DNA from: an uncultured Chthoniobacterales bacterium | Lineage (GTDB): Bacteria; Verrucomicrobiota; Verrucomicrobiia; Chthoniobacterales; JAATET01 | Assembly (NCBI GenBank): GCA_964247025.1 | Contig: CAXTSM010000001.1 | Span: forward strand, 92,050-156,049 | Direction of reading: 5' to 3' | Length of the DNA stretch: 64,000 nucleotides | Part shown: positions 8,436 to 38,132 of the stretch, in pieces | How positions within the stretch are numbered: position 1 is the stretch's first letter | How the letters are laid out: every line of letters starts with the position of its first letter | Position numbers and translations under genes: made by a program | Notes under the pieces: model-generated | The model's input: the letters and a program-made list of their open reading frames with translations, nothing else | Database searches by the model: none | What the model was told of the DNA's origin: nothing

Positions 8436-8873
8436 GGAAAGGAGTGAGAACTAAGCAGGATTTGGCCGGGATCGAGAGGATTTACGGGATTCGGGATCTG
8501 AATTTTTCCATTTCCTGACCGCCCGGCGGCTCCGTTCGACCCTTCACCAAACCGGCCTCCCTCGCCCGCCCGCCCATCCACCTCCCGAAGGGGCGGATGA
8601 TGTTTGGCCCATCGCGGCGTCGAAGGCCGATTCGACCTAGGGCGGGTCAATCGAGAGTGCCGACCGCCGCCCGGCCGTCGTGCGTGAGAGGGAGGGCTCC
8701 GTCGCGGGACGCCTTGGGAGAGCGAGCGGCGATCGCCTTCATTGAAATGCGGGGGCAGCGGCAGCGTGTTGTCAGGTCAACGGCGAAGAACAAGGCCGAA
8801 CCCAAACCTCGTCCACGCCGACTTGGTCATGACGCACGCCGAGTTGGTTAACCTCCACACTGACTTGGTTGGC

Positions 8874-8947
8874 ACGAACACCGAACTGATGACGTTCAAC
8901 GCCGGCCGGATGAGAACGAACACCGAGCTGATGACGTTCAACGCCGG
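8874..8947. repeat. Two 32-bp direct repeats (period 42 bp)
   Basis: 'acgaacaccga[a/g]ctgatgacgttcaacgccgg' occurs at 8874..8905 and 8916..8947. Confidence 0.7.
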
Positions 8948-8980
8948 GCTGATTATGGCGGGTGCCGAGCCGATCATGGC

Positions 8981-9680
8981 GCCGCGGTCCGAAAGTCCTT
9001 GTAGCCGCCCCGCTCCGTCGGGGCGCTGGGGGGGCGCGTGATCTCACGCCACACGGCGACGGAGCGCCGTGGCTACAAGGAGACATACCCCGAGGCGCAC
9101 CTCGCCTTCGGGCAAACCGCCGCGGTCCGAAGGTCCTTGTCGCCGCCCCGCTCCGTCGGGGCGCTGGGGGGCGCGTGATCTCGCGCCACACGGCGACGGA
9201 GCGCCGTGGCGACAAGGAAACATGCGGGGCGCGCTTCGTCTTCGGGCAAACCGCCGCGGTCCGAAGGCCCTTGTAGCCGCCCCGCTCCGTCGGGGCGCCG
9301 GGGGGCGCGTGATCTCACGCCACACGGCGACGGAGCGCCGTGGCTACAAAGAAATGTGCCGGGGCGCACCTCGCCTTCGGGCAAACCGCCGCAGTCCGAG
9401 GGTCCTTGTAGCCGCCCCGCTCCGTCGGGGCGCCGGGGGGACGCGTGATCTCGCGCCACACGGCGACGGGGCGCCGTGGCGACAAGGAAACATGCGGGGC
9501 GCGCTTCGTCTTCAGGCAAACCGCCGCGGTCCGAAGGCCCTTGTCGCCGCCCCGCTCCGTCGGGGCGCCGGGGGGCGCGTGATCTCGCGCCACACGGCGA
9601 CGGAGCGCCGTGGCGACAAAGTCGGAGCGCCGTGGCGACAAAGTCGAGGCGCCGCGGCGACAAGGAAACATGGCCGGGAC
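8981..9680. repeat. Tandem array of 5 copies of a ~134-138-bp nested-palindromic REP/MITE-like element
   Basis: Units start at 8981, 9119, 9253, 9388 and 9523. Each contains the closing inverted repeat CCTTGT[A/C]GCC...GGC[T/G]ACAAGG around three small hairpins (GCCCCG-CTCCGT-CGGGGC; GCGTGA-TC-TC[A/G]CGC; CACGGCG-ACGGAG-CGCCGTG). The last unit has its 3' arm triplicated with a ~22-bp period. Confidence 0.85.
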
Positions 9681-9864
9681 GCGTTCCTCCGACGAGGGGC
9701 TTCGTCTTCGCGCGGGCGCGAAAAAAAGCCGGGCGAACCGGCGCGCGGCGGCAGCGGACGGAAAGACGCCCTCCCGCATCGCCGGGGCGCCGGAGGGTGA
9801 CCGCGGCTCCCCGGCAAAATGTCCACCCGCGTCTCCGCCCGCGTCATCTGAACGTCGATCCGCC

Positions 9865-11748
9865 CTAGTTCGCGTTCGCCGTGGCCGTTTCCCACGCGGC
9901 GGTGGCTCGCTCGATCCGGTCGGCGATCTCGGCGAGCTCGCGGTTGGCGCGATGGGCTTTGCCCGGGTCGTCGTAGGTCGCGGAGTCTTCGAGGGTCGCG
10001 GTGAGCTCCTTCCGGCGAGCCTCGAGCGCGAGCACTTCGGCCTCGAGTTTTTCCGCCTTTGCGGCGGCTTCGCGGCGTTCCTTCGCCTTGGCGTTGCGCG
10101 CCTCGGCTTCCGCGCGCTTTGCCTCCTTTGTCTTGAAGATGCGCGCGCGCTCGGGCGCGGCGGCCTTTGGCGCCTCGCTCAGGCGTTCGCCGGATACGAG
10201 GGCCTCGCGCTCGGAGGTGGCCGCGGTCTTGTCGAGGAAATACTGGTAGTCGCCGGGGTAGAACTTCGTGCTGCCGGCCTGCACGTGGAGCACCTGCTTC
10301 GCGATGGCGCGGATGAAATACACGTCGTGGCTGATGAAGACGACCGTGCCCGAGAACTGCTTGAGCGCGGTGATGAGCGCGTCGATGCTCGGGATGTCGA
10401 GGTGCGTGGTCGGCTCGTCCATGAGCAGCAGATTCGGCGGGTCGAGCAGCAGCTTCACGAGCGCGAGCCGGCTTTTTTCGCCGCCGCTGAGCACGCCGAC
10501 GTTCTTGAAAACGTCGTCGCCGCGAAAGAGGAACGCGCCGAGCACGGTGCGCACGAACTCCTCGTTCACGCCCCGGGCGCCGGCCGCCGCCTCCTGGAGG
10601 ACGGTGCGCTTCTCGTCGAGCATCTCGACGCGATACTGCGCGTAGTAGCCGATCTTCGCGTTGTGCCCGGGCTCGCGCGTGCCGCCCTGGATCGGGATGA
10701 CGTCGGCGAGGATCTTGAGCAGCGTGGACTTGCCCGCGCCGTTCGGGCCGACGAGCACGAGCCGCTGCTCGCGCTCGATCTCGAGGCTCAATCCGCGGTA
10801 GATCTGCTTTTCGCCGTAGGCCTGGTCGACGCTCTCGAGCCGGATCACCCGCTGGCCGGAGCGCGGCGGCTGCGGGAACGAAAAGCGCACGACCGGCGCC
10901 ATCGCCTCGGGCGGCTCGATGCGCTCCATGCGGGCGAGCTGCTTCACGCGGTCCTGCGCCTGCGCGGCCTTGCTGGCCTTCGCGCGGAAGCGGTCGATGA
11001 AGGACTGGAGCGCGGCGATCTCGCGCTGCTGGTTTTCGTAGGCGGCCTGCTGCTGGACCTGCTGCGCCTCGCGTTGGGTGAGGAAGCCGTCGTAGTTGCC
11101 GACGTAGCGCCAGAGCCGCCGGTTGCGGATCTCGATGATCGTGTTGCAGAGCACGTTGAGGAATTCCCGGTCGTGCGAGATCACGAAAAACGCGCCGGGG
11201 TAGGCGATGAGATATTCCTGGAACCACCGCAGCGCCTCGAGGTCGAGGTGGTTCGTCGGCTCGTCCAGCAGCAACAGGTCGGGCTCGAGCACGAGCAGCC
11301 GCGCGAGGTGGGCGCGCATCACCCAGCCGCCGCTGAAGGTGTGGGCGGGCTGGTCGAAATCGGTCTCGCGGAAGCCGAGGCCGGAGAGGATGCGCTTGGC
11401 CTTCGGCTCGCGGCTCATCGCCTCGTAGTCGTCGGAGAAATCCGCGTCGGGGTCCTCGGGGTCCATTTCCCCGGTGGCGATCTCGCGACCGGTCGCGAGG
11501 TCGAGCACGGTCTCGTTGCCGGCGGGCGCGCTCTCCTGCGGGAGGAAGCCGAGGGAGGAGCCGCGCTGGAGGCTCACGCTGCCCTCGTCGGGCGAGTCGT
11601 GGCCGAGGATGAGCGAAAAGAGGGTGGACTTGCCGGCGCCGTTCGGCCCGACGAGGCCGATGCGGTCGCCGCGGTTGATCTGGACCGACGCGTTTTCGAA
11701 GAGCACGCGACCCGCGAAGGATTTGGTCACGCCGGAAATGGAAAGCAT
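9865..11748 (-). CDS. ABC-F family ATPase (second paralogue)
   Basis: Start placed at MLSISGVTKSF (internal Met of ORF 9865..11805). Walker A motifs 'GPNGAGKST' x2, signatures 'FSGGWVMR' and 'LSGGEKSR', and a Lys/Glu/Ala-rich coiled-coil tail. Confidence 0.88.
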   Translation of the reverse strand: MLSISGVTKSFAGRVLFENASVQINRGDRIGLVGPNGAGKSTLFSLILGHDSPDEGSVSLQRGSSLGFLPQESAPAGNETVLDLATGREIATGEMDPEDPDADFSDDYEAMSREPKAKRILSGLGFRETDFDQPAHTFSGGWVMRAHLARLLVLEPDLLLLDEPTNHLDLEALRWFQEYLIAYPGAFFVISHDREFLNVLCNTIIEIRNRRLWRYVGNYDGFLTQREAQQVQQQAAYENQQREIAALQSFIDRFRAKASKAAQAQDRVKQLARMERIEPPEAMAPVVRFSFPQPPRSGQRVIRLESVDQAYGEKQIYRGLSLEIEREQRLVLVGPNGAGKSTLLKILADVIPIQGGTREPGHNAKIGYYAQYRVEMLDEKRTVLQEAAAGARGVNEEFVRTVLGAFLFRGDDVFKNVGVLSGGEKSRLALVKLLLDPPNLLLMDEPTTHLDIPSIDALITALKQFSGTVVFISHDVYFIRAIAKQVLHVQAGSTKFYPGDYQYFLDKTAATSEREALVSGERLSEAPKAAAPERARIFKTKEAKRAEAEARNAKAKERREAAAKAEKLEAEVLALEARRKELTATLEDSATYDDPGKAHRANRELAEIADRIERATAAWETATANAN

Positions 11749-11803
11749 CCGCGACCTTGGCAGAAATCCTGCCGTCGCCGCAACGTCCGGCGTGCGTATT
11801 CTC

Positions 11804-14470
11804 ATGACGATGATCGAAGTGCGTTACGAATGGGGCGTGCACCTGCCGGCCGAGCACCTGTGGCTCGACCCGCGCGGGCCGCGGGAATTCGCCTTCGTCT
11901 CGCACGCGCATAGCGACCACACCGGCCGCCACCGCGAGACCATCCTGACCGAGGCGACGTCGCGGCTCATGCGCGCGCGCATGGGCGAGCCGCCCGGCCG
12001 GGAGCACGTGCTGGGCTACCGGGAGCGGCGGCGGCTGCGGAACTTCGAGATCGAGCTGCTGCCCGCCGGGCACGTCCTCGGCTCCGCGCAATGCCTGGTC
12101 ACCGCCGACGCGGGCACGCTGCTCTACACCGGAGATTTCAAGCTGCGCTCCGGGCTGAGCTCGGAGCCGGCCGAGGCCGCGCCGGCCGACACGCTCATCA
12201 TGGAAACGACGTTCGGCCTGCCGCGCTACGCCTTCCCGCCGGCGGAGCGCGTCGTCGCGGACGTCGTGAAATTCTGCCTCGAGGCCCGCGAGGACGGCGC
12301 CACGCCCGTGCTGCTCGGCTACTCGCTCGGCAAGGCGCAGGAAATCCTTTTCGCCGTCGCCGCCGCGGGCCTGCCGATCATGCTGCACGCGTCGGTCTGG
12401 AACATGTCGCAGGTCTACGAGTCGATGGGCGTGAAATTTCCCCCGCACGAGAAGTACGCCGCGGGGACGGTCGGCGATCACGTCCTCATCTGCCCGCCGA
12501 GCGTGGCCGGCTCGGCCATGCTGCGGAAAATCTCGCCGCGCCGCGTCGCCGTGCTCACGGGCTGGGCGATGGACGGCGCCGCCGCGCATCGCTACCAGGT
12601 GGACGCCGCGTTCCCGCTCTCCGACCACGCCGATTACCCCGACCTGATCCGTTACGTCGAGATGGTGCGGCCCCGGCGCGTGCTCACGCTGCACGGCTTC
12701 GCCCGCGAGTTCGCGCGCGACCTCCGCGCGCGCGGCATCGAGGCCTGGGCGCTCACCGCGCACGACCAGCTCGAGTTCGCGCTGGCGACGCCTTCCGCGG
12801 TCGTGGCGATACCGGGCGAAATCCGACCCCCCGCCGCGGCGGACCACGGATTCTCGGGCTTCTCCGCCCTGTGCGAGCGGATCGCCGCCACCACCGGCAA
12901 GCTCGTGAAGACGAACCTGCTCGCGGACTATTTTCGCCGCCTCGACGACGAGGAGCTTCCGCTCGCCGCCACCTGGCTGACCGGCCGGGCTTTTCCGCAA
13001 ACGGCCGCGCGCCCGCTGCAACTCGGCGGCGCGATCATCCGGCGCGCGTTGCTCGCCGCCTCGGGCCTGACGCCCTCCGACCTCCAGGCGATCTCCCGGC
13101 GCCATAACGACGCGGGGCTCATGACCGAGGAGGCGCTGGCCGCGAACGCCGGCGGCGAGCCGTGGACGCTCCCGGCGGCGAACGCGTTTTTCGAACGCCT
13201 CGGGCAGGCGCGCGGCCCCATCGCAAAGGGCCAGCTGCTCGAGGGCCGGCTGCGCGGGCTCTCCGCCCTCGACGCGAAGCACCTGGTGAAAATCCTCACC
13301 GGCGACCTGCGCATCGGGCTGAAGGAGGGCCTCGTCGAGGACGCCGTTGCCGCGGCTTTTCTCCGCGCGCCCGAAGCCGTCCGCGAGGCGCACATGCTGC
13401 TCGGCGACCTCGGCGAAACCGCGCGGCGCGCCCGGCACGACGATCTCGCGTCGATCGAGCTGCGGCCCTTCCGGCCGGTGAAATGCATGCTCGCGGGGCC
13501 GGAGCCGGACGGCGAATCGGTCTGGGATCGCATGACGGCGGACGGGAGCGGGGAGGTCTGGCTCGAGGACAAGCTGGACGGAATCCGCGCGCAGCTGCAT
13601 TGCGCCGGCGGCGAGGTCGAGATCTATTCACGCGACCTGCGGCGGATCACGGCGACGTTTCCCGAGATCGCCGCGGCCGCGCGGGGGGCGGGGGCGGAGT
13701 TCGTGCTCGACGGCGAGATCGTCGCGTGGCGCGAAGGGCGGCCGCTGGGATTCTTCGAGCTGCAGAAGCGGCTCGGGCGCGTGGAGCGCGATCTGTTCAT
13801 GAGCGAGGAGGTGCCGGTCACCTTCACGGCCTTCGACGTGCTGTGGCTGGACGGCGCATCCGTTTTCCGAAGGCCTCTGGAGGAGCGCCGCGCGTGGCTG
13901 GAGGCGCTGCCGCTGGCCGATCCGCTGCAGACGATTCCCATCGCGCGGGCCAGGTCCGCGGAGGAGATCGAGATCGCCTTCCTGGCGGCGCGCGGCCGGA
14001 ACAACGAGGGGCTTATCGCGAAGTCGCCGCGGAGCCTCTACACGCCGGGGCGGCGCGGGCTGTCGTGGGTGAAGTTGAAAAAGGCGTTCGCGACCCTCGA
14101 TTGCGTCGTGGTTTCCGTCGAATACGGGAACGGCAAACGCAAGGGCGTGCTGAGCGACTACACCTTCGCCGTGCGCGACGAGAGGGGCGCGCTGGCGAAT
14201 ATCGGCAAGGCCTACAGCGGGCTCACGGACGTCGAGATCGCCGCGCTTACGGAGCGGTTTCAGGCGATGATCGTGCGGCAGCGTGGCCGGGTGTTCGACG
14301 TGCGGCCCGAGGTCGTGCTGGAGATCGCGTTCGACGCGATCCAGCCGAGCGACCGGCACGCGAGCGGGCTGGCGCTGCGTTTCCCGCGCATTCATCGCAT
14401 CCGGGACGACAAGACCGCGGAGGACATCGACACGGTGGCGGACGCGAGGCGGTTGGCGGGGATCGCGTGA
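11804..14470 (+). CDS. Fusion protein: MBL/beta-CASP 'ligase-associated' exonuclease (N-terminal) plus ATP-dependent DNA ligase (C-terminal)
   Basis: Start at MTMIEVRYEWG. MBL motif 'SHAHSDHTG' and a beta-CASP-like region run to about aa 340. This is followed by a ligase DNA-binding region ('FSALCERIAATTGKLVKTNLLADYF'), adenylation motif I 'EDKLDGIRAQLH', and an OB-fold tail. It is a single uninterrupted frame of 888 aa. Confidence 0.85.
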   Translation: MTMIEVRYEWGVHLPAEHLWLDPRGPREFAFVSHAHSDHTGRHRETILTEATSRLMRARMGEPPGREHVLGYRERRRLRNFEIELLPAGHVLGSAQCLVTADAGTLLYTGDFKLRSGLSSEPAEAAPADTLIMETTFGLPRYAFPPAERVVADVVKFCLEAREDGATPVLLGYSLGKAQEILFAVAAAGLPIMLHASVWNMSQVYESMGVKFPPHEKYAAGTVGDHVLICPPSVAGSAMLRKISPRRVAVLTGWAMDGAAAHRYQVDAAFPLSDHADYPDLIRYVEMVRPRRVLTLHGFAREFARDLRARGIEAWALTAHDQLEFALATPSAVVAIPGEIRPPAAADHGFSGFSALCERIAATTGKLVKTNLLADYFRRLDDEELPLAATWLTGRAFPQTAARPLQLGGAIIRRALLAASGLTPSDLQAISRRHNDAGLMTEEALAANAGGEPWTLPAANAFFERLGQARGPIAKGQLLEGRLRGLSALDAKHLVKILTGDLRIGLKEGLVEDAVAAAFLRAPEAVREAHMLLGDLGETARRARHDDLASIELRPFRPVKCMLAGPEPDGESVWDRMTADGSGEVWLEDKLDGIRAQLHCAGGEVEIYSRDLRRITATFPEIAAAARGAGAEFVLDGEIVAWREGRPLGFFELQKRLGRVERDLFMSEEVPVTFTAFDVLWLDGASVFRRPLEERRAWLEALPLADPLQTIPIARARSAEEIEIAFLAARGRNNEGLIAKSPRSLYTPGRRGLSWVKLKKAFATLDCVVVSVEYGNGKRKGVLSDYTFAVRDERGALANIGKAYSGLTDVEIAALTERFQAMIVRQRGRVFDVRPEVVLEIAFDAIQPSDRHASGLALRFPRIHRIRDDKTAEDIDTVADARRLAGIA

Positions 14471-17162: not shown

Positions 17163-18806
17163 ATGAGCCTGAGCCCTCTCGCCGGCAAGCCCGCCCCCGC
17201 CTCGATCCTCACGAACATTCCGCGCCTCGTCGCCAGCTACTACTCCGAGTCGCCCGACCCCGCGGTGGCGGCCGAGCGCGTCGCCTTCGGCACCTCGGGC
17301 CACCGCGGATCGTCCTTCAAGCGCACGTTCAACGAGGCCCACATCCTCGCGATCTGCCAGGCGATCTGCGAATATCGAGCCGGCATCGGCACGGACGGAC
17401 CGCTTTTCCTCGGCATGGACACCCACCCGCTCTCGGAGCCCGCGTGGATCTCGGCGGTGGAGGTCTTCGCCGCCAACGGCGTCACCCTCATGCTCGACCA
17501 CGACGGCGGCTACACGCCCACGCCCGCCGTTTCGCACGCCATCATTACCTACAACCGAAGCCGCGCCACCGGCCTCGCGGACGGCGTCGTCATCACGCCC
17601 TCGCACAATCCGCCCACCGACGGCGGCATCAAATACAACCCGACGAACGGCGGCCCGGCCGATACCGACATCACCGGCTGGATGGAAAAACGCGCGAACG
17701 AACTGCTCGCGGGCGGCTTGCGCGAGGTGCGGCGGACCACCCTCGCAAAGGCCCGCGCCGCCGCCACCACCCGCGAGTTCGATTACGTCTCCCACTACGT
17801 GAACGACCTCGGCTCCGTCATCGATTTCGCCGCGATCAAGGCCAGCGGCCTGCGCATCGGCGTCGACCCCATCGGCAACGCCTCGCTCGCCTACTGGCCG
17901 CCCATCGCGGACCGCTACGGCCTCGACCTCACGATCGTGAACCAGGAAATCGACTTCACGTTCCGCTTCATGAGCGTGGACTGGGACGGCAAGATCCGCA
18001 TGGACTGCTCGTCGCCCTACGCGATGGCTGGGCTGATCGGATTGAAGGATCAATTCGACATCGCCTTCGCCAACGACACCGACGCCGACCGCCACGGCAT
18101 CGTCACGCCGAACGCCGGGCTGATGAACCCCAATCATTACCTCGCCGTCGCCATCTCCTATCTTTTTGCAAATCGTCCCGGCTGGCCGGCCGCGGCGCGC
18201 ATCGGCAAGACGCTCGTGAGCAGCAGCATGATCGACCGCGTGGCCGCGAAGCTCGGCCGTCCGCTCGTCGAGGTGCCGGTCGGGTTCAAGTGGTTCGTCG
18301 ACGGCCTGTTCGCCGGCACGCTCGGCTTCGGCGGCGAGGAGAGCGCCGGCGCGTCGTTCCTGCGCCGCAACGGCGACGTCTGGACCACGGACAAGGATGG
18401 TCCGATCCTCGGCCTGCTCGCCGCCGAAATCACCGCGACGACCGGGCGCGACCCCGGCGAGCACTACGTCGCGCTCACCGAGGAATTCGGCGCCCCGGTC
18501 TACGAGCGCATCGACGCCCCGGCGAACGCCGCGCAGAAGGCGGTCTTGAAAAATCTCTCCCCCGCCCAGGTCCCCGCCACCGAATTGGCCGGCGAGCCGA
18601 TCACCCGCATGCTCACCACCGCCCCTGGAAACGGCGCGGCCCTCGGTGGCCTGAAAATCGAAACCGCCTCCGGATGGGCCGCCGCCCGCCCGAGCGGCAC
18701 GGAGGAGGTCTATAAGATCTACGCCGAAAGCTTCCGGGACGCGGACCACCTGGGCCGCATCCAGGCGGAGACCCAGGAAATCCTGGCCCAAGCCTTCGCG
18801 TTATAG
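17163..18806 (+). CDS. pgm: Phosphoglucomutase, alpha-D-glucose phosphate-specific
   Basis: Start at [12 protein letters not shown] (internal Met of ORF 16869..18806). Active-site '[11 protein letters not shown]', 'GTSGHRG' and 'GEESAGASF' motifs. 547 aa. Confidence 0.92.
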
Positions 18807-18829
18807 CCACCGCGCTCTGGCCGCGCCCT

Positions 18830-18926
18830 CTTTGTAGCCACGGCGCTCCGTCGCCGTGTCCCCGCGCTCCGCTCGGAAGACGGCCATCATCCCGCGCCCC
18901 GCCCCCGCGGAGCGGGGCGGCGACAA
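18830..18926. repeat. REP/MITE-like palindromic element (same family as the 8981-9680 array, inverted orientation)
   Basis: 'ctttgtagccacggcgctccgtcgccgtgt...ggagcggggcggcgacaa' shares the arms of the tandem-array unit in reverse complement. It lies just after the pgm stop. Confidence 0.7.
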
Positions 18927-18991
18927 CTTGCGGCCGCGCATCATCCAAGATCGCGCTTGCCTCGCCGGGAGACTTCCCTATTCCTGCGCGG

Positions 18992-19381
18992 ATGAAATCG
19001 ATCCTGAGAGTTATACCGGTCGTTCTGGGAATTTCCGCTGGCGTGGCCGTCGCGGCGGACAAGCGGGACGCGCAGCTGCAGGAAATCTCCGCGATCAAGG
19101 AGGAACTGAAACCGCTGCGCGAGCGGGCCTACGTCGAGCCGGAAGTCATTGCCGCGCGCCGGAAACTGGACGCCGCCTACCGCGAGTATTGGGAGTCGGT
19201 CCGCGGCGCCATGGAGCGGCTCGACCCGGCGAAGAAAAAGCTCATCAAAAAAGAAATCGCCCTGCGCAAGGAAACCGGCGCCGTCGCCGGCGGCAGCCGC
19301 GCCGAGGACTACGAAAAAAAGGCGGCGCAGGCAAAAGCGGCCGAGACGCCTTCGTCGAAAGCGAAAAAACCCGGCGACTAG
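18992..19381 (+). CDS. Hypothetical secreted helical Lys/Glu-rich protein (copy 1)
   Basis: Signal peptide MKSILRVIPVVLGISAGVAVAA followed by coiled-coil-like sequence. Its duplicate at 20627..21016 differs by 2 aa. Confidence 0.55.
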   Translation: MKSILRVIPVVLGISAGVAVAADKRDAQLQEISAIKEELKPLRERAYVEPEVIAARRKLDAAYREYWESVRGAMERLDPAKKKLIKKEIALRKETGAVAGGSRAEDYEKKAAQAKAAETPSSKAKKPGD

Positions 19382-19421
19382 GACCATATCTGTCCGATGC
19401 CGGTTCATAAACTCCGTTGAA

Positions 19422-19531
19422 ATGAGCCTGGAATATGAAGTGCACACCGATCCGAAGTCATCGGACGCGCGCAACGGGGAATCCCGCTCTTCACGCCGGA
19501 GCGCAACGCGTTTGCCGAAGGCGAGTGCGCC
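19422..19531 (+). pseudogene. cas3 5'-end remnant (diverged, frameshifted)
   Basis: 'MSLEYEVHTDPKSSDAR...' aligns with the cas3 start 'MSPEFYAHTDPESSDVR' at offset 1635. An indel breaks the frame, and similarity ends after 'ggcgagtgcgcc'. Confidence 0.6.
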
Positions 19532-19612
19532 TGGGCCCAAAGCGATCCAAGCGGACGGACCCTTAGCCGAATCGGATTGCGAAAACTTGCATGTCAAACG
19601 ATATTCGAACGT

Positions 19613-19828
19613 ATGACAACGTCACTTTTATCACCCAAATACCAAGTTGTTATCCCGAAGGAAATTCGGAAGCGGCTCACCCTGAGACCCGGACAACGCC
19701 TGCAAGTCCTGGAAAAAGACGGCTACATTGAAATCCGCCCCATCCTCCGGCCCGACCAACTCATCGGGATCCTTTCCGACTGCAAGCATATCGCATTCGA
19801 GCGGGAACCAGATCGCGAACTCCCATGA
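19613..19828 (+). CDS. vapB: AbrB/MazE/SpoVT-family antitoxin (VapB-like)
   Basis: 'KYQVVIPKEIRKRLTLRPGQRLQV' is a swapped-hairpin DNA-binding motif. 71 aa. ATGA overlap with the downstream PIN gene. Confidence 0.8.
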   Translation: MTTSLLSPKYQVVIPKEIRKRLTLRPGQRLQVLEKDGYIEIRPILRPDQLIGILSDCKHIAFEREPDRELP

Positions 19829-20214
19829 GGAGGCCCCCCTCGCTCGATAGTTCCGCCTGGATCGAGATCTTTCACGGCGGGCCGAACGCCGAACGATTTC
19901 TCGACGCGCTGGGAGATCCCGCTGCCGTCATTGTTTCACCCGTCGCCATCTACGAAGTGTGGAAATACACCATTCTTCACGCCGACGAATCGCGCGCGCA
20001 GGTCATCTTGGCATTCATGCGCCAAGGCACCCTCGTCCCCGTCGATGCCGATATCGCCATCCTCGCAGCCGCTCTAAGCATCAAGAAGAAAACCCCCATG
20101 GCAGACAGCCTCATCTACGCCACCGCCGTCAGCCGGCAGGCCACCCTCTGGACGCAGGACCAGCATTTCGAAGGACTCGACCACGTCCGCTACTTCCCCA
20201 AAATCAACCCCTGA
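19825..20214 (+). CDS. vapC: PIN-domain ribonuclease toxin (VapC-like)
   Basis: 129 aa with the acidic residues of a PIN fold ('LDSSAWIE', 'IYEV', 'MADSLIYATA', 'TQDQHF'). Visibly lower GC than the flanks. Confidence 0.8.
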   Translation: MRRPPSLDSSAWIEIFHGGPNAERFLDALGDPAAVIVSPVAIYEVWKYTILHADESRAQVILAFMRQGTLVPVDADIAILAAALSIKKKTPMADSLIYATAVSRQATLWTQDQHFEGLDHVRYFPKINP

Positions 20215-20276
20215 CCCTCTCTCCATGGCCTACGGCGGTCAAACGCCATGCCTCAGGCGACTTTGCCCGCTTCACC

Positions 20277-20441
20277 GGCCCTGAAATGAAAGTCGGGCGC
20301 GAGTCCGACTGTTTCGCCGCCCGCTGGAGCGACACGGAGGAGGTCTCTAAAATCTACGCCGAAAGCTTCCGGGACGCGGACCACCTGGGCCGCGTCCAGG
20401 CGGAGACCCAGGAAATCCTGGCCCAAGCCTTCGCGTTATAG
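20277..20441 (+). pseudogene. pgm 3'-end fragment (duplicated, no 5' part)
   Basis: '...[36 protein letters not shown]' matches the pgm C-terminus. Upstream similarity decays by about 20277. Confidence 0.75.
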
Positions 20442-20464
20442 CCACCGCGCTCTGGCCGCGCCCT

Positions 20465-20561
20465 CTTTGTAGCCACGGCGCTCCGTCGCCGTGTCCCCGC
20501 GCTCCGCTCGGAAGACGGCCATCATCCCGCGCCCCGCCCCCGCGGAGCGGGGCGGCGACAA
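20465..20561. repeat. REP/MITE-like palindromic element (duplicate of 18830..18926)
   Basis: Identical sequence at offset 1635. Confidence 0.7.
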
Positions 20562-20626
20562 CTTGCGGCCGCGCATCATCCAAGATCGCGCTTGCCTCGC
20601 CGGGAGACTTCCCTATTCCTGCGCGG

Positions 20627-21016
20627 ATGAAATCGATCCTGAGAGTTATACCGGTCGTTCTGGGAATTTCCGCTGGCGTGGCCGTCGCGGCGGACAAGCG
20701 GGACGCGCAGCTGCAGGAAATCTCCGCGATCAAGGAGGAACTGAAACCGCTGCGCGAGCGGGCCTACGTCGAGCCGGAAGTCATTGCCGCGCGCCGGAAA
20801 CTGGACGCCGCCTACCGCGAGTATTGGGAGTCGGTCCGCGGCGCCATGGAGCGGCTCGACCCGGCGAAGAAAAAGCTCATCAAAAAAGAAATCGCCCTGC
20901 GCAAGGAAACCGGCGCCGTCGCCGGCGGCAGCCGCGCCGAGGACTACGAAAAAAAGGCGGCCCAGGCAAAAACGGCCGAGACGCCTTCGTCGCAAGCGAA
21001 AAAACCCGGCGACTAG
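20627..21016 (+). CDS. Hypothetical secreted helical Lys/Glu-rich protein (copy 2)
   Basis: 129 aa, 2 substitutions relative to 18992..19381. Confidence 0.55.
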   Translation: MKSILRVIPVVLGISAGVAVAADKRDAQLQEISAIKEELKPLRERAYVEPEVIAARRKLDAAYREYWESVRGAMERLDPAKKKLIKKEIALRKETGAVAGGSRAEDYEKKAAQAKTAETPSSQAKKPGD

Positions 21017-21056
21017 GACCGCGTTTGTCCCATGCCAGATCATAGACTCGTTTGAA

Positions 21057-23462
21057 ATGAGCCCGGAGTTTTACGCGCACACCGACCCGGAATCATCGGA
21101 CGTGCGCGACTGGGAACCGCTCTTCACGCCGGAGTGTCCCGCGCTTGCCGGAGGCGAGTGCGCCAAATGCGAAAGCCTAGACCGCTTCCACGGCCACCTC
21201 AACAAAGTCGCCTGGTGGACCGCGAAGTTCGCCGCGGAAATGTTCCCGCCCGGCCCCGACCGCGAAGCCGCTCGCGAGTGGGGCCGCCTTGCCGGCCTGT
21301 GGCACGACCTCGGGAAGTTTCATTCCCGCTTTCAGCAAAAGTTGAACGGTGAGCGCCTCCAAATCGAACATGCCGGAGCGGGCGCGGCTTTGGCGCGACG
21401 CTGTCAGATCCCGGGCTGGGAATTAATTGCCTTTGCCATTGCAGGACATCACTGCGGCCTGGCGAACATGTTGAATGCCGAGGCCATTGGTGATCGGCTG
21501 ACACCTCTCGACGAGAGACTGACGAGAGGGGCGGGGACTCTCCGCGAATGTGAGGCGACGGCCGGTTTTCAAATCGGTGAGGTCGCCAATGTTCAGTTTA
21601 CCGCTGAGCGGAATGCCATCTTGGCATCTGTTTTCGCGCATTGCCCGGACCGCGGCCATTTCATCCGCCGGCTCTTCTCGGCGCTGGTCGATGCGGATGG
21701 CCTTGCGACCGAGGCATTCTGTTCGCCGTCAGAACGCAAAACCCGATTTCGCCAGGACTGGATTTACGATTCCGTGGAGGCGCTCCTCGATCGACTTGAC
21801 GGTCATTTGGACAGCTTCTCGCGGTGCGGCGCGCAATCTGCGGTGAATGAGGAGCGGGCTCGCATCCTGCAGTGGAGCCGATTGGCGGCCGCGGAGTCAC
21901 CTGGATTCTTCCAGCTCAATGTTCCAACCGGGGGCGGAAAAACGCTATCCGCGATGGCGTTTGCATTGCGCCACATAAAAACACATGCAGGCAAAGGCCT
22001 TCGTCGTGTCGTGATCGCCGTGCCCTACACGAGTATCATCGAACAGAATGCCGGCATCTATCGGGACATCTTGGGGGCGCACAATGTCATCGAGCACCAC
22101 TCGAACCTTGACGATTTTGCCGAAGGCGAAGAAGGCGGTGACGAGTTGGCGGTGCGTCGCCGTCTCGCGTGCGAAAATTGGGATGCGCCGATCGTCGTGA
22201 CGACGAACGTGCAGTTGTTCGAATCGCTTTTCGCGAACAAGCGACGTCGCGCCCGCAAGTTGCACAACTTGGCGGGCAGCGTGATCATCCTCGACGAGGC
22301 ACAGTGCGTTCCGGCCGAGTATCTGCACCTCATCCTTTCCGCGACGCGAGGTCTTGTTGAGAAACATGGCTGCACCGTCGTCATCTCGACGGCGACCCAA
22401 CCAGCCTGGAAGCACCGAGCCAAGCTCCCGTTCGGTATCCCCGCGGAACAAATCCGGCCAATTGTTCCTCCCGGTGTCGAACTGGCCAAGGTGGACGCCT
22501 TCGACCGCGTAACCGTTGAATGGCCGCGATCTTTGGTGCCGACCACGCATGAGGAACTGGCCTCATTGCTCCTGGATGAAAATTGCGTGATGGCCATCGT
22601 CCATCGGAAAAAGGACGCGCGAAACCTCGCTCGACGCCTTCGGGAGGAGCGACCGGACGAGTCGGTCTTTCACCTTTCGACCAACATGTGTCCGGTCCAT
22701 CGACGGAAGGTGCTCGAGGAAATCCGCTTTGCGCTTTCGGATTTTCGCAAGAGCGGCACGCCGTGCCGCGTGGTCAGCACCCAGCTTGTGGAAGCGGGGG
22801 TCGACCTTGATTTTCCGGTGATTTATCGGGCTCTGGCAGGACTTGACTCCATCGCGCAGGCAGCGGGCCGGTGTAATCGGGAAGGCCGCTTAGTTGGCAA
22901 AAAAGGAAGGGTCGTAGTTTTCATTGCGGAGACCGATCCGCCAGATGGGCATCTCAAGCACTGCGCGGAAATCACGCAAAAGATGCTCGCGGAATACGAG
23001 GGAAAGCTAGACTTGCGGAATCCTTCAATCTTCGAGGGATTTTTTTTCCGGCTTTATCGAGATCGCAACCTCGACGCGAAAAATCTCGTCCGCCACGCAA
23101 TGGATCTGAATTTCGAAACGCTGGGACGCGAGTTCCGACTTATCGAAGAGGGCGATCAGATGCCCGTCGTCATTCTCTTCGATAAGGAAGCTCGAAAGCG
23201 TCTCGCCGATATTGAGCGGATCGTGCAAAACGCGGATGAACCCGTTGCCGCCCGTTTTGCCCTGCGTGCCCTCCAACCCTACACGGTGCTCGTGCGCCCG
23301 GCTGACCAAAGAAAGCTCAGCAACGCATCACGTCCTCTTTCCGCAGGAAATGCCGTCTCCGTTCTAGATCCCGATTTCTACTCCGGCTCCTACGACTCCG
23401 TTTTTGGACTCTCCACCGATGATGAACCACGAATTTATCCTGACCAACTTATTGCAGAGTAA
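21057..23462 (+). CDS. cas3: CRISPR-associated helicase/nuclease Cas3 (HD domain plus DEAD/DEAH helicase)
   Basis: Start at MSPEFYAHTD (internal Met of ORF 20784..23462). HD motifs 'HGHL', 'LWHDLGKF' and 'AGHHCGL'. Helicase motifs 'VPTGGGKT', 'IILDEAQ', 'STATQP' and 'QAAGRCNREG'. 801 aa. Lower GC than the surrounding genome. Confidence 0.9.
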   Translation: MSPEFYAHTDPESSDVRDWEPLFTPECPALAGGECAKCESLDRFHGHLNKVAWWTAKFAAEMFPPGPDREAAREWGRLAGLWHDLGKFHSRFQQKLNGERLQIEHAGAGAALARRCQIPGWELIAFAIAGHHCGLANMLNAEAIGDRLTPLDERLTRGAGTLRECEATAGFQIGEVANVQFTAERNAILASVFAHCPDRGHFIRRLFSALVDADGLATEAFCSPSERKTRFRQDWIYDSVEALLDRLDGHLDSFSRCGAQSAVNEERARILQWSRLAAAESPGFFQLNVPTGGGKTLSAMAFALRHIKTHAGKGLRRVVIAVPYTSIIEQNAGIYRDILGAHNVIEHHSNLDDFAEGEEGGDELAVRRRLACENWDAPIVVTTNVQLFESLFANKRRRARKLHNLAGSVIILDEAQCVPAEYLHLILSATRGLVEKHGCTVVISTATQPAWKHRAKLPFGIPAEQIRPIVPPGVELAKVDAFDRVTVEWPRSLVPTTHEELASLLLDENCVMAIVHRKKDARNLARRLREERPDESVFHLSTNMCPVHRRKVLEEIRFALSDFRKSGTPCRVVSTQLVEAGVDLDFPVIYRALAGLDSIAQAAGRCNREGRLVGKKGRVVVFIAETDPPDGHLKHCAEITQKMLAEYEGKLDLRNPSIFEGFFFRLYRDRNLDAKNLVRHAMDLNFETLGREFRLIEEGDQMPVVILFDKEARKRLADIERIVQNADEPVAARFALRALQPYTVLVRPADQRKLSNASRPLSAGNAVSVLDPDFYSGSYDSVFGLSTDDEPRIYPDQLIAE

Positions 23463-23492
23463 AAACCGCTCCCTCAGATGGGAGCGGTTTCT
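23463..23492 (+). terminator. Stem-loop immediately after the cas3 stop; repeat-core-like hairpin
   Basis: 'AAACCGCTCCC-TCAGAT-GGGAGCGGTTT' is a perfect 11-bp stem followed by 'ctatt'. The stem core CGCTCCCTCA..GGGAGCG mimics the CRISPR repeat stem. Confidence 0.5.
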
Positions 23493-23514
23493 ATTCGATC
23501 CGCCAAACCTACAG

Positions 23515-23547
23515 GTTTCAATCCGCGCTCCCGCGTCGGGAGCGAAC
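23515..23547 (-). repeat. Solitary inverted, degenerate CRISPR repeat copy ('anti-repeat') 14 bp upstream of repeat 1
   Basis: GTTTCAATCCGCGCTCCCG-CGTC-GGGAGCGAAC compared with the reverse complement of the repeat, GTTTCAATCCGCGCTCCCG-TGA-GGGAGCGAC. The first 19 nt are identical and the stem is retained with a different loop. Confidence 0.8.
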
Positions 23548-23561
23548 TTCTACTCATATCG

Positions 23562-24175
23562 GTCGCTCCCTCACGGGAGCGCGGATTGAAACGATTTCCT
23601 CCCACTCGAAAGAGTGGCAACCTACGTCGCTCCCTCACGGGAGCGCGGATTGAAACGTCGCGCTGAGCTTAGCTAATTTCGCCGTTGCGGGTCGCTCCCT
23701 CACGGGAGCGCGGATTGAAACATGAAGCCCGAGGGCATTGTAATCTTTCATGTCGGTCGCTCCCTCACGGGAGCGCGGATTGAAACTGGCGCGGATGGCA
23801 GACAAGGTCTTGGAGCCTGGGTCGCTCCCTCACGGGAGCGCGGATTGAAACGCGACCTGCCGCAGCTCGGTGAACTCATCGGGCGGTCGCTCCCTCACGG
23901 GAGCGCGGATTGAAACCATGAAGCGATCAAAAGATAAGATAGAAGCTTTTGTCGCTCCCTCACGGGAGCGCGGATTGAAACGTGAACGGGAAGGGCTCGT
24001 CCCCTGCCCGGCCGCGTCGCTCCCTCACGGGAGCGCGGATTGAAACACCGATCGGGAAACGGAGCGTGCATCCCGAGAGGTCGCTCCTTCACGGGAGCGC
24101 GGATTGAAATACGGCGCGGCCGATGGGCGTCGCGGCGGGCACTTGTCGCTCCCTCATGGGAGCGCGGATCTCGGG
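23562..24175 (+). CRISPR. CRISPR array with 10 repeats and 9 spacers; type I-C-like repeat
   Basis: 31-bp repeat GTCGCTCCCTCACGGGAGCGCGGATTGAAAC at 23562, 23626, 23691, 23756, 23821, 23886, 23951, 24016, 24080 (2 mismatches) and 24145 (3' end degenerate). Spacers are 33-34 bp and all different. The degenerate repeats sit at the cas3-distal end. Confidence 0.95.
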
Positions 24176-24182
24176 GCGGAGG

Positions 24183-24716
24183 TTACTTGAAGGAATAGGT
24201 GCCGCCGGTGGGCGCGCCGGGGAAGGGGGAGGAGATGGTGAATTTTCCAACGATGCTCAGCTTTGTGCCGGAGTAGCTGGCGGTGCCGTCGACGACGTAA
24301 CTGCCGCCGGAGTCGCGACCCTTCACGTGGTAGGTGAGGATGCGGCCTTTCACGCTCCAGGTGCCTTTACCGCTGGCATCGCTGTAGCCGGGGATGATCG
24401 AGGCGGCGGTGCACTTGCCTTTGTCGCCGAAGGTGAGCGTGGTGGAGTAGGTGATCGCGGGATTCGACTTGTCATGCGCGGAGACGACGAGCGAGCCCTG
24501 GGTGTCTGCCTTCTTCGTGGTGAAGACCGACTTGCCGGGGCCGCTGCCCGCGAAATTTTGGAAGGAACCGCCCGAGGTCATGAAGGTGAAGGTGCCCTTG
24601 CGGTTGCCCTTGAATTTGACGAGCGGTCCGCTCTTGGCGACCGCGGCGCCGGCGACGGCGAGCGTGCAGATAGCGGTAAGGACGAGACGGGTGACGAGGG
24701 AGCGAGGAAATTTCAT
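24183..24716 (-). CDS. Hypothetical secreted beta-rich protein
   Basis: Signal peptide MKFPRSLVTRLVLTAICTLAVAGAAVA followed by Ser/Thr/Gly/Lys-rich sequence with alternating beta-strand character. No family was recognised. Confidence 0.6.
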   Translation of the reverse strand: MKFPRSLVTRLVLTAICTLAVAGAAVAKSGPLVKFKGNRKGTFTFMTSGGSFQNFAGSGPGKSVFTTKKADTQGSLVVSAHDKSNPAITYSTTLTFGDKGKCTAASIIPGYSDASGKGTWSVKGRILTYHVKGRDSGGSYVVDGTASYSGTKLSIVGKFTISSPFPGAPTGGTYSFK

Positions 24717-24888
24717 TTTTGGAGAGAAGATAAAATCATGTCGAAGGCCCGTCGGGCTGTAAATCAGGACAAATCCCTAGATGTCGGTAGGCGGACCTGG
24801 CCCTCGCGCGGGGAGTTGATCTCGAGCCTGCCGACGGGGCTCCTTCCGGGTTCTTGCGGCCGGCAACCGTCGTCGTTACGCTGTCGCC

Positions 24889-25566
24889 ATGAGCAAGCCC
24901 GCGGAATCGGTGGCCTTTTTCTTCGACGTCGATAATACGCTTCTCGACAACGACCGAGTCACCGAGGACATCCGGCACACGCTCGTGTCCCGCTTCGGCC
25001 GGGAGGCGAGCGTGCATTATTGGGATGCGTTCGAGGGGTTGCGCGCCGAGCTCGGCTACGCCGATTACCTCGGCGCGTTGCAGCGCTACCGGTTGCGGGA
25101 AATGCACGACGCCCGCCTGCTGCGCCTGTCATCCTTCCTCGTCGATTACCCGTTCGCGAACCGCCTTTTCCCCGGCTCCCTCGACGCGATCGAGCATTGC
25201 CGCCAATGGGGCACGGTCGCGATTCTTTCCGATGGCGACGCGGTTTTCCAGCCGCGCAAGGTGGAGCGGTCCGGGCTGTTCGAGGCCGTGCGTCGGCACG
25301 TGCTCATCTACATTCACAAGGAGGAGGAGCTCGCGCGCGTCGAGGCCATCCATCCGGCGGCGCATTACGTCATGGTCGACGACAAACTGCGCATCCTCGC
25401 CGCGATGAAAACGATCTGGGGCGACCGCCTCACCACCGTGTTCGTCCGGCAAGGGCACTACGCGCTCGAGCCGGGGATCGAGGAGAAGTATCCGACCGCG
25501 GATCTCGTAATCGACCGCATTGGCGATCTCGTCAGGCATGACTTTTCCCGCCTGGTGAATAAATGA
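24889..25566 (+). CDS. HAD-superfamily hydrolase
   Basis: Motif I 'FFFDVDNTLLDND' and motif 'AILSDGD'. 225 aa. Confidence 0.75.
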   Translation: MSKPAESVAFFFDVDNTLLDNDRVTEDIRHTLVSRFGREASVHYWDAFEGLRAELGYADYLGALQRYRLREMHDARLLRLSSFLVDYPFANRLFPGSLDAIEHCRQWGTVAILSDGDAVFQPRKVERSGLFEAVRRHVLIYIHKEEELARVEAIHPAAHYVMVDDKLRILAAMKTIWGDRLTTVFVRQGHYALEPGIEEKYPTADLVIDRIGDLVRHDFSRLVNK

Positions 25567-38058: not shown

Positions 38059-38132
38059 TCGGGGCGACAGGATTCGAACCTGCGACCTCCTGGTCCCAAA
38101 CCAGGCGCTCTACCAAGCTAAGCTACGCCCCG
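38059..38132 (-). tRNA. tRNA-Pro (anticodon UGG)
   Basis: The reverse complement folds as a cloverleaf: acceptor CGGGGCG/CGCCCCG, anticodon stem CCTGG/CCAGG with loop TT-TGG-GA, and T-arm GCAGG-TTCGAAT-CCTGT. No CCA is encoded. Confidence 0.9.

Follow-up and report, generated by a model that had tools for sequence, protein, structure and literature searches.

An intact type I-C cas3 beside a leaderless CRISPR array: a probable remnant of a canonical locus in a variable defence hot spot

The window analysed here, a stretch of 64,000 nucleotides of contig CAXTSM010000001.1 (positions 92,050 to 156,049, from an uncultured verrucomicrobium), contains a type I-C CRISPR locus, in which the gene for an HD nuclease-helicase, Cas3 (801 aa; 21057-23462, plus strand), is followed directly by a repeat-spacer array (23562-24175, plus strand). 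The stop codon of cas3 and the first repeat are separated by 99 bp (23463-23561). A preliminary description of the locus had noted an intact cas3 abutting an I-C-type array at this distance, and both observations hold: PADLOC assigns the protein to Cas3c (E=1e-184), and the repeats outnumber those in shuffled sequences. Apart from PADLOC, the assignment of the protein is supported by the NCBIfam models cas3_core (TIGR01587) and cas3_HD (TIGR01596), which both exceed their cutoffs, and by an alignment with 19 homologues. The nearest solved structures are 8zns_A and 8g9u_P (E~1e-101 to 1e-103). In the alignment all invariant columns are retained, including those of the HD, Walker A and DExx motifs and of motifs III and VI, and the protein deviates at just 2 of the 93 near-invariant columns, which is as few as observed for Cas3 from intact operons. 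The earlier statement that all HD and helicase motifs are kept is therefore correct, and the gene shows no sign of decay. In 300-nt segments the GC content of cas3 and the array is 0.51-0.66 (mostly 0.55-0.62), lower than that of the entire window (0.68), as would be expected if this DNA had been acquired.

The array comprises ten repeats and nine spacers. The 31-nt repeat (GTCGCTCCCTCACGGGAGCGCGGATTGAAAC) is present in eight exact copies and one copy with two mismatches, where shuffled sequences are expected to yield none, and the tenth repeat is a truncated, degenerate terminal copy (24145-24175). The period is 64-65 nt and the spacers are 33-34 nt long, with a GC content that ranges from 32% to 79%; each of the nine is unique, as had been reported. 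Type I-C repeats are recognized by a length of around 32 nt, a 5' GTCGC, an internal stem-loop, a 3' ATTGAAAC and spacers of 33-35 nt. The repeat of the window has this form (GTCGC-stem-GGATTGAAAC, ending in ATTGAAAC), and the proposed I-C character is corroborated by the fact that the identical repeat is found in the arrays of L003, L004 (both exact) and L006 (the loci used for comparison are numbered L001 and onwards), which are flanked by an I-C cas3 or by I-C cas operons. The degenerate repeats are located at the right-hand (trailer) end of the array, so that the leader should be expected on the left, beside cas3. Nevertheless, the leader motif TTCGCGnAA, which occurs around 50 nt before repeat 1 in most of the relatives examined, was not found before the array of the window, and promoter prediction gave no sigma-70-like candidate close to the array on its plus strand. 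Here Rfam yielded nothing beyond CRISPR-DR9 matches below threshold.

The scan of a genome collection with the repeat (one genome per species) returned 11 loci, all from other organisms. In L003 (68-2728) and L004 (5166-7833), which carry the exact repeat of the window, array and leader are positioned head-to-head with a divergently transcribed cas3. Considering that these loci belong to metagenome-assembled genomes (MAGs), one of the Eubacteriales and one of the Opitutales, and that their Cas3 proteins are only 36-38% identical to that of the window, a single repeat serves distantly related hosts. In another case, L005, a lone I-C-type repeat (GGTCGCTCCCGCGAGGGAGCGCGGATTGAAAC, 2139-2170) was observed on a contig of a Planctomycetales MAG with 68% GC, and no I-C cas genes were present within the 8 kb fetched.

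It had been suggested that the spacers be compared with phage, plasmid and own-genome sequences, and this produced one informative match. The first 26 nt of spacer 3 match the IMG/VR contig UViG_3300028837_000690 consecutively, within a 29-nt blastn alignment of 96.6% identity. The 5' flank of the corresponding protospacer is TTT, on the side expected from the orientation of the array, where protospacers of type I-C carry a 5'-TTC protospacer adjacent motif (PAM); it is a single match, to a virus that is related and not identical. Judging by this viral match, the array appears to hold a true record of past immunity. The other comparisons yielded no match among 50,697 phage records, no self-target in the 64-kb window and, in the plasmid collection, matches to other I-C arrays only; exact 24-26-mers were absent from IMG/VR for seven of the eight spacers scanned.

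None of the remaining components of a type I-C system could be identified as a functional gene. A tblastn search of the window with Cas5c, Cas8c, Cas7, Cas4, Cas1 and Cas2 of the two closest operons gave no hits (best E=0.09), and in scans of the 36 other predicted proteins with hidden Markov models no Cas family appeared among the top 25 families listed for each scan of the whole set. The families that were listed are those of housekeeping proteins, like ABC-F ATPases, two-component regulators, a polyketide synthase, DNA ligase and thymidylate synthase. The window thus lacks the Cascade proteins Cas5c, Cas8c and Cas7 as well as the adaptation module cas4-cas1-cas2 and the leader. The claim that nothing resembling these cas genes occurs within the 64 kb is accurate for functional genes, and has to be amended for a frameshifted cas5c stub of around 100 nt (20225-20324), the sole trace of Cascade, which is located upstream of cas3.

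The relatives of the locus are organized differently. The two closest according to Cas3, L001 and L002 (71% and 66% identity), are canonical cas3-cas5c-cas8c-cas7-(cargo)-cas4-cas1-cas2-array operons. A metagenome scan provided 80 further loci, and around 70 relatives had sufficient downstream sequence to be mapped by tblastn. In every relative with enough flanking sequence cas5c is positioned immediately 3' of cas3, with the exception of L091, and in none of the ~70 related loci is an array found directly 3' of cas3. Given that no relative shares the cas3-array order, the arrangement in the window represents a one-off departure and not a recurrent architecture. The locus resembles the type I-C (Dvulg) systems in its I-C-clade Cas3, the form of the repeat, a spacer length of 33-34 nt, the position of the degenerate repeat on the trailer side and the T-rich 5' flank of the protospacer; it differs from them in lacking the genes for Cas5c, Cas8c, Cas7, Cas4, Cas1 and Cas2 and the leader, and in having a cas5c stub upstream of cas3. 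As for L091, its I-C-type cas3 (8337-10802, product 39% identical) is followed by an open reading frame (ORF) of 412 aa and a RAMP-like ORF beginning with MSIITATYRIVTPMFLGD, so that a type III module may have been combined with I-C genes in a hybrid locus.

The 99 bp between cas3 and the array had been treated as plain spacing, which is not borne out: they contain what appears to be an antisense mini-array that resembles the source of a CRISPR RNA (crRNA). Its elements lie on the minus strand. The one nearest to the array, psiR1 (GTTCGCTCCCGACGCGGGAGCGCGGATTGAAAC, 23515-23547), is a repeat-like copy that has the stem and the last 18 nt in common with the true repeat. It is followed by a pseudo-spacer, psiS (CTGTAGGTTTGGCGGATCGAATAG, 23491-23514), and by a hairpin, psiR2 (23466-23487), whose 7-bp stem (CGCTCCC/GGGAGCG) is that of the CRISPR repeat and after which the minus strand reads TTTTT. 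The psiR2 hairpin is interpreted as the 3' element of the mini-array and its terminator. Only 14 nt (TTCTACTCATATCG, 23548-23561) remain between psiR1 and repeat 1. The layout of the gap equals that in L001 and L002, also in its distance from cas3, with a GC-rich hairpin at the stop codon of cas3, around 25 nt and then an inverted repeat 3' end (...GGATTGAAAC). By this layout, the 99 bp are to be taken as the cas3-proximal part of a cas3-cas5c intergenic region and not as a leader. No minus-strand promoter was predicted beside psiR1. Together, psiR1 and repeat 1 constitute a 31-bp inverted repeat, and a transcript across both is predicted to fold at -86 kcal/mol, with a z-score of -10.

The mini-array motif was found 48-90 nt past the stop codon of cas3 in the window and in 11 further distinct I-C loci (12 locus records, of which L020 and L021 are identical; a thirteenth match, L040, was a false positive). 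In all 11 of these loci cas3 and cas5c lie 190 bp or more apart, and loci with short gaps lack the motif. The sequences of the terminal hairpins are wholly different between loci, and every one of them is stable. In 8 of the 12 loci a TTC-flanked site in the intergenic region downstream matches the pseudo-spacer in part, to a degree that at most 8 of 2000 shuffles attain. The pairing spans positions 1-5 and 7-11, and mismatches are frequently found at exactly positions 6 and 12. In L002, L017 and L022 the target lies 6-28 nt before the start codon of cas5c; L001 has a weaker match (8/15) at the equivalent position, which by itself is not significant. In the loci with a long gap the matched site adjoins cargo ORFs, several of which encode PIN toxins. 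More explicitly, a PIN-domain ORF occupies the 750-975-bp gap between cas3 and cas5c in L020 (3280-4214), L043 (5032-6007), L047 (2887-3753) and L052 (2688-3435), and in the first three of these the pseudo-spacer matches a TTC-flanked site beside the PIN cargo at 13-15 of the 15 counted positions. It is possible that the cargo in L020, L043 and L047 represents a protein toxin-antitoxin (TA) system of type I-C loci that would be repressed by Cascade.

The layout in the relatives is, as far as can be judged from sequence, the signature of the crRNA-like regulators of the CreR/CreA type. Such regulators have been tested in types I-B, I-E, I-F and V-A, and I-C candidates have been noted (bioRxiv 10.1101/2023.03.10.532045; PMC10120712; bioRxiv 10.1101/2024.01.05.574328). 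The features in common are a short pseudo-spacer set between a sequence that resembles the repeat and a second hairpin derived from it, in an intergenic region beside cas3, and, in the relatives, partial pairing of the pseudo-spacer with a PAM-flanked site at the promoter of the effector genes or of the (TA) cargo. The window itself shows the former, two repeat-derived elements around a spacer-like sequence, and lacks the complementarity to a PAM-flanked promoter site that characterizes 8 of the 12 loci. No TTC-flanked target of psiS was found in the window: with 7 of 9 counted positions, its highest seed score does not exceed that of shuffled spacers, and a search without the PAM restriction returned nothing convincing. 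Since no site scored better than the shuffled controls, the target is presumed to have been deleted. The element of the window thus differs from its counterparts in being orphaned, with both the target and the Cascade that it would guide gone.

The combined data indicate what happened to the locus. Because cas5c is adjacent to cas3 in the relatives, a segment of ~6.5-7.6 kb, a size derived by comparison with L001 and L002, has probably been lost between 23547 and repeat 1. The junction can be placed within 23548-23561, on the basis of the missing psiS target, the missing leader motif and the fact that these 14 nt show no similarity to the sequence that follows psiR1 in L001 and L002 or to the leader ends of relatives. 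They are possibly a leftover of a leader or a spacer, and the right-hand break may have fallen within either of these. The last eight of them (23554-23561, TCATATCG) are identical at 7 of 8 positions to the last 8 nt of spacer 3 (23748-23755, TCATGTCG); this is probably a matter of chance, although it would fit a right-hand breakpoint in a former spacer. Two other scenarios were considered for this region and rejected. Array growth from psiR1 by ectopic integration does not agree with the orientation of psiR1, which is opposite to that of the array, and recombination between psiR1 and an array repeat would, as the copies are inverted, have led to an inversion and not to a deletion. The internal deletion from cas5 through the leader, one of the two explanations offered in the preliminary description, is therefore well supported, considering the canonical organization of the relatives, the nature of the gap as the start of a cas3-cas5c region and the absence of the leader motif. 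We conclude, with a probability of roughly 75%, that a canonical type I-C locus was acquired horizontally and that what remains of it, a known system that has degenerated, is located in a variable defence hot spot. Most likely it is a wreck and not a new minimal system. Like other orphan or degenerate CRISPR loci it has kept an array after the loss of the cas genes needed for its use; it differs from these in that an apparently functional cas3 is still attached and that datable older relics are found alongside.

These older relics were missed in the preliminary description. They lie upstream of the intact cas3, all on the plus strand, and include a duplication of around 850 bp (18681-19531 versus 20316-21164) that encompasses the tail of the phosphoglucomutase gene pgm, a gene denoted A and the first ~108 nt of cas3. 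The core of the first copy (18760-19326) is 100% identical to its counterpart, and the copies have diverged towards their edges, with an identity of ~91% on the left and ~80% on the right. Gene A (18992-19381) encodes a hypothetical protein of 129 aa without a family match, of which a 68%-identical homologue is encoded directly after pgm in L099; the second copy, gene A', is located at 20627-21016. The cas3 sequence at the end of the first copy (19422-19531) is a remnant of the 5' end in which a 2-nt insertion shifts the frame. Compared with the start of the intact cas3 it is 82% identical at the nucleotide level (a blastn alignment of 141 nt) and 67% at the amino acid level.

Between this remnant and the second copy lie two cargo genes and the cas5c stub. 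The first, vapB (19613-19828), encodes an AbrB/MazE-type antitoxin (AbrB domain, TIGR01439, 48.8 bits compared to a cutoff of 28.3) that is 74% identical to the product of an ORF between cas3 and cas5c in L025-L027. The second, vapC (19825-20214), encodes a PIN-domain toxin (NF047959 VapC, E=5e-7, which is below the curated cutoff) that is 45-47% identical to the product of the ORF after vapB in L025-L027 and L016. The genes overlap by 4 nt and together have the make-up of a VapBC type II TA system. Toxin-antitoxin cargo (VapBC/PIN, AbiEii) is known from cas operons, and the vapBC homologues of L025-L027 and the PIN ORFs mentioned above indeed occupy the gap between cas3 and cas5c; the vapBC of the window differs in that it is bordered by dead stubs of cas3 and cas5c and not by live genes. 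The cas5c stub is a decayed remnant of the 5' end of the gene. One of its frames reads HASGDFARFTGPEMKVGRESDCFAARW, which can be aligned to Cas5c of L025; there is a frameshift between the ATG and HASGDFARFTGPEMKVGRESDCFAARW, and conserved residues have been altered. The segment 20111-20290 is 74.7% identical at the nucleotide level to the vapC-cas5c junction of L025, past the stop codon of vapC and into the start of cas5c. The possibility that 20262-20315 is a decayed extension of the pgm duplicate was rejected, as both the translation and the comparison with L025 identify it as cas5c. The stub is fused to the duplicated 3' tail of pgm (20316-20441) at a microhomology of 9 nt (GCCGCCCGC, 20316-20324, identical to 18681-18689).

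The genomic setting agrees with a site at which such elements come and go. The island is bounded on the left by pgm (17163-18806, plus strand; TIGR01132, E=8e-270), with orthologs of 80-85% nucleotide identity in L095-L098, and on the right by a gene for a HAD hydrolase (24889-25566, plus strand; PF00702), an ortholog of the gene after pgm in relatives (77-83% nucleotide identity). Genes for this hydrolase, a Na/Pi cotransporter and an FAD monooxygenase follow pgm both in the window and in the relatives. The identity of pgm is 88% with its counterpart in a Terrimicrobiaceae MAG and 78-81% with those in Chthoniobacterales MAGs, and the host is a Terrimicrobiaceae-like verrucomicrobium. The interval between pgm and the hydrolase gene is empty in L098, L100 and L102, and in L095 contains an island with a TA system, a methylase, NurA, HerA and a PIN protein; in the closest relative, L099, pgm is followed by gene A and an aldo-keto reductase gene, and the contig ends before any hydrolase. 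Given this variable content, 18807-24881 can be regarded as a variable defence hot spot. L096 and L097 carry at this hot spot (11656-12213) an AbiEii-like gene with 72% identity to the cargo that the I-C operon L002 has between cas7 and cas4. It could be all that is left of an I-C locus, or else a TA system that moves on its own.

A few other elements were observed in and around the island. On the minus strand an ORF of 177 aa (24183-24716), the stop codon of which is 7 nt from the last degenerate repeat, encodes a protein with a signal-peptide-like N-terminus and has a host-like GC content at third codon positions; it yielded no family match and has no homologue at the hot spot in the relatives. 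Two ABC-F ATPase genes flank a tandem array (8980-9619) with 4.7 copies of a 134-bp unit (90% matches), and GC-rich hairpins built as TTGTAGCC-stem-GCTCCGTC-stem are found in every unit. This hairpin motif (CTTTGTAGCCACGGCGCTCCGTCGCCGTG) is also present just past pgm (18822-18850) and in the duplicate (20457-20485), and its stem there shows compensating changes relative to the copies at 8980-9619. It looks like a dispersed element resembling repetitive extragenic palindromes. The only Rfam match at gathering threshold in the window was a tRNA gene (38059-38132, minus strand).

A history can be proposed on basis of the above. The ancestral order would have been cas3, the antisense psiR1-psiS-psiR2, possibly the vapBC cargo, cas5c-cas8c-cas7-cas4-cas1-cas2, the leader and the array. 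In a type I-C system the leader drives transcription of the array and Cas5c, in the absence of Cas6, cuts the repeats, leaving an 11-nt 5' handle (...GGATTGAAAC); Cascade locates TTC-flanked targets and then recruits Cas3. By analogy with CreR/CreA, the RNA of the mini-array would act as a crRNA-like guide with a pseudo-spacer that pairs over only ~11-17 nt at the promoter of cas5c or the cargo, and Cascade bound to the TTC-flanked site would repress without cleavage. The older rearrangement, which left the cas3 stub, vapBC and the cas5c stub fused to the duplicated pgm tail upstream, may have started with an illegitimate crossover between cas5c and pgm at GCCGCCCGC, which would have led to the tandem duplication, after which most of the first cas3 copy would have been lost. 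The later deletion of ~6.5-7.6 kb would then have taken the likely promoter and the target of the mini-array, the genes for Cascade and adaptation, and the leader. As a consequence, the locus by itself should be unable to process crRNAs, recognize targets, recruit Cas3 and acquire spacers. Transcription of the array would be possible only through read-through from cas3, in which case psiR1 and repeat 1 are expected to pair as the 31-bp hairpin.

Several observations weigh against this interpretation. The cas3 gene and the eight identical repeats show no visible decay, which would fit a very recent deletion or ongoing selection. That the deletion is 'recent', as was stated before, is in fact read solely from this intactness, and with decayed stubs nearby, the large deletion must have come long after the upstream rearrangement unless cas3 is still selected. 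Orthologous loci had been put forward as a means to locate the breakpoints, and the seven inspected (six pgm relatives and one gene-A relative) have no cas genes at the hot spot, let alone an intact I-C locus; as a sister with an intact locus is thus missing, the breakpoints had to be placed by means of operons whose Cas3 is only 59-71% identical. Furthermore, the cas5c stub and vapBC resemble L025, whereas the intact cas3 resembles L001, and the relics may therefore stem from a different I-C system. Finally, the order and mechanism of the rearrangements are only what we infer. The intactness of the locus is also what speaks for the other explanation in the preliminary description, namely that cas3 and the array are maintained by selection and use a Cascade (and perhaps Cas1-Cas2-Cas4) encoded elsewhere, with Cas5c processing the array in trans and the complex recruiting Cas3. 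Cas3 deviates at no more near-invariant columns than its counterparts in intact operons and the eight repeats are perfect, while the cas3 and cas5c stubs, 1.5-3.5 kb upstream, are frameshifted and diverged by ~20%, which implies that unselected cas DNA does decay at this locus. The force of this comparison is weakened by the fact that the stubs may be older than the deletion or of another origin. Moreover, the array has neither a leader nor a recognizable promoter, the target of the mini-array is gone, the arrangement occurs in none of the ~70 related loci, and the scan with the repeat, the results of which did not include the source genome, gave no second locus that could be attributed to the organism. 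We therefore consider a minimal cas3-plus-array unit less likely than a deletion, and dependence on a Cascade encoded elsewhere unlikely as such. A more elaborate proposal is that the locus forms half of a split I-C system, in which selection preserved cas3 and the array well beyond the loss of the local Cascade genes, while the stubs diverged by ~20%; distant Cascade and adaptation genes would serve it, and the RNA of the mini-array may cross-regulate the distant operon. This is more doubtful still.

The remaining explanations concern the origin of the junction, and both seem very improbable. One is that the junction is an artefact, created when repeat-like sequence misjoined the region after cas3 to the array in the assembly, the true genome having a full operon. 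The exact 18-mer and the repeat stem that psiR1 and the CRISPR repeat have in common could promote such an error, as could the duplication with its identical core of 567 bp, and the source may be a metagenome assembly. However, psiR1 is inverted with respect to repeat 1, both are complete and 14 unique nt lie between them, which is not what a collapse at the 18-mer would yield; each copy of the duplication has diverged edges of its own and is flanked by unique sequence, and the contig is ~300 kb long with conserved synteny on both sides. The other holds that the deletion is a scar of autoimmunity, in which Cascade guided by the mini-array, normally bound without harm to a partially matching site just past psiR1, once recruited Cas3 and processive degradation removed the cas genes up to the array. 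The I-C Cascade-Cas3 complex makes deletions of several kb that start at its target, and the left breakpoint (23548-23561) is situated where the relatives carry the target of the mini-array, 10-225 nt past psiR1. Yet there is no direct evidence for such an event and no self-targeting spacer in the window, and any illegitimate deletion of a costly or self-toxic system would look alike. A degenerated canonical type I-C locus is thus the explanation that we prefer.

When interpreted in this way, the locus is a routine example of decay and ought not to be listed among new minimal architectures. Its value lies in the dated series of decay stages that is preserved at a single hot spot, from frameshifted stubs and a surviving TA pair to an intact cas3 and a leaderless array. 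The presence of vapBC beside dead cas genes provides a natural case for the question whether TA cargo really prevents the loss of cas operons. Beyond the window, type I-C loci with a long gap between cas3 and cas5c commonly carry an antisense mini-array, the pseudo-spacer of which matches a TTC-flanked site at the promoter of cas5c or of the TA cargo, whereas crRNA-like elements of type I-C have been noted only in passing in two published surveys (bioRxiv 10.1101/2023.03.10.532045; PMC10120712).

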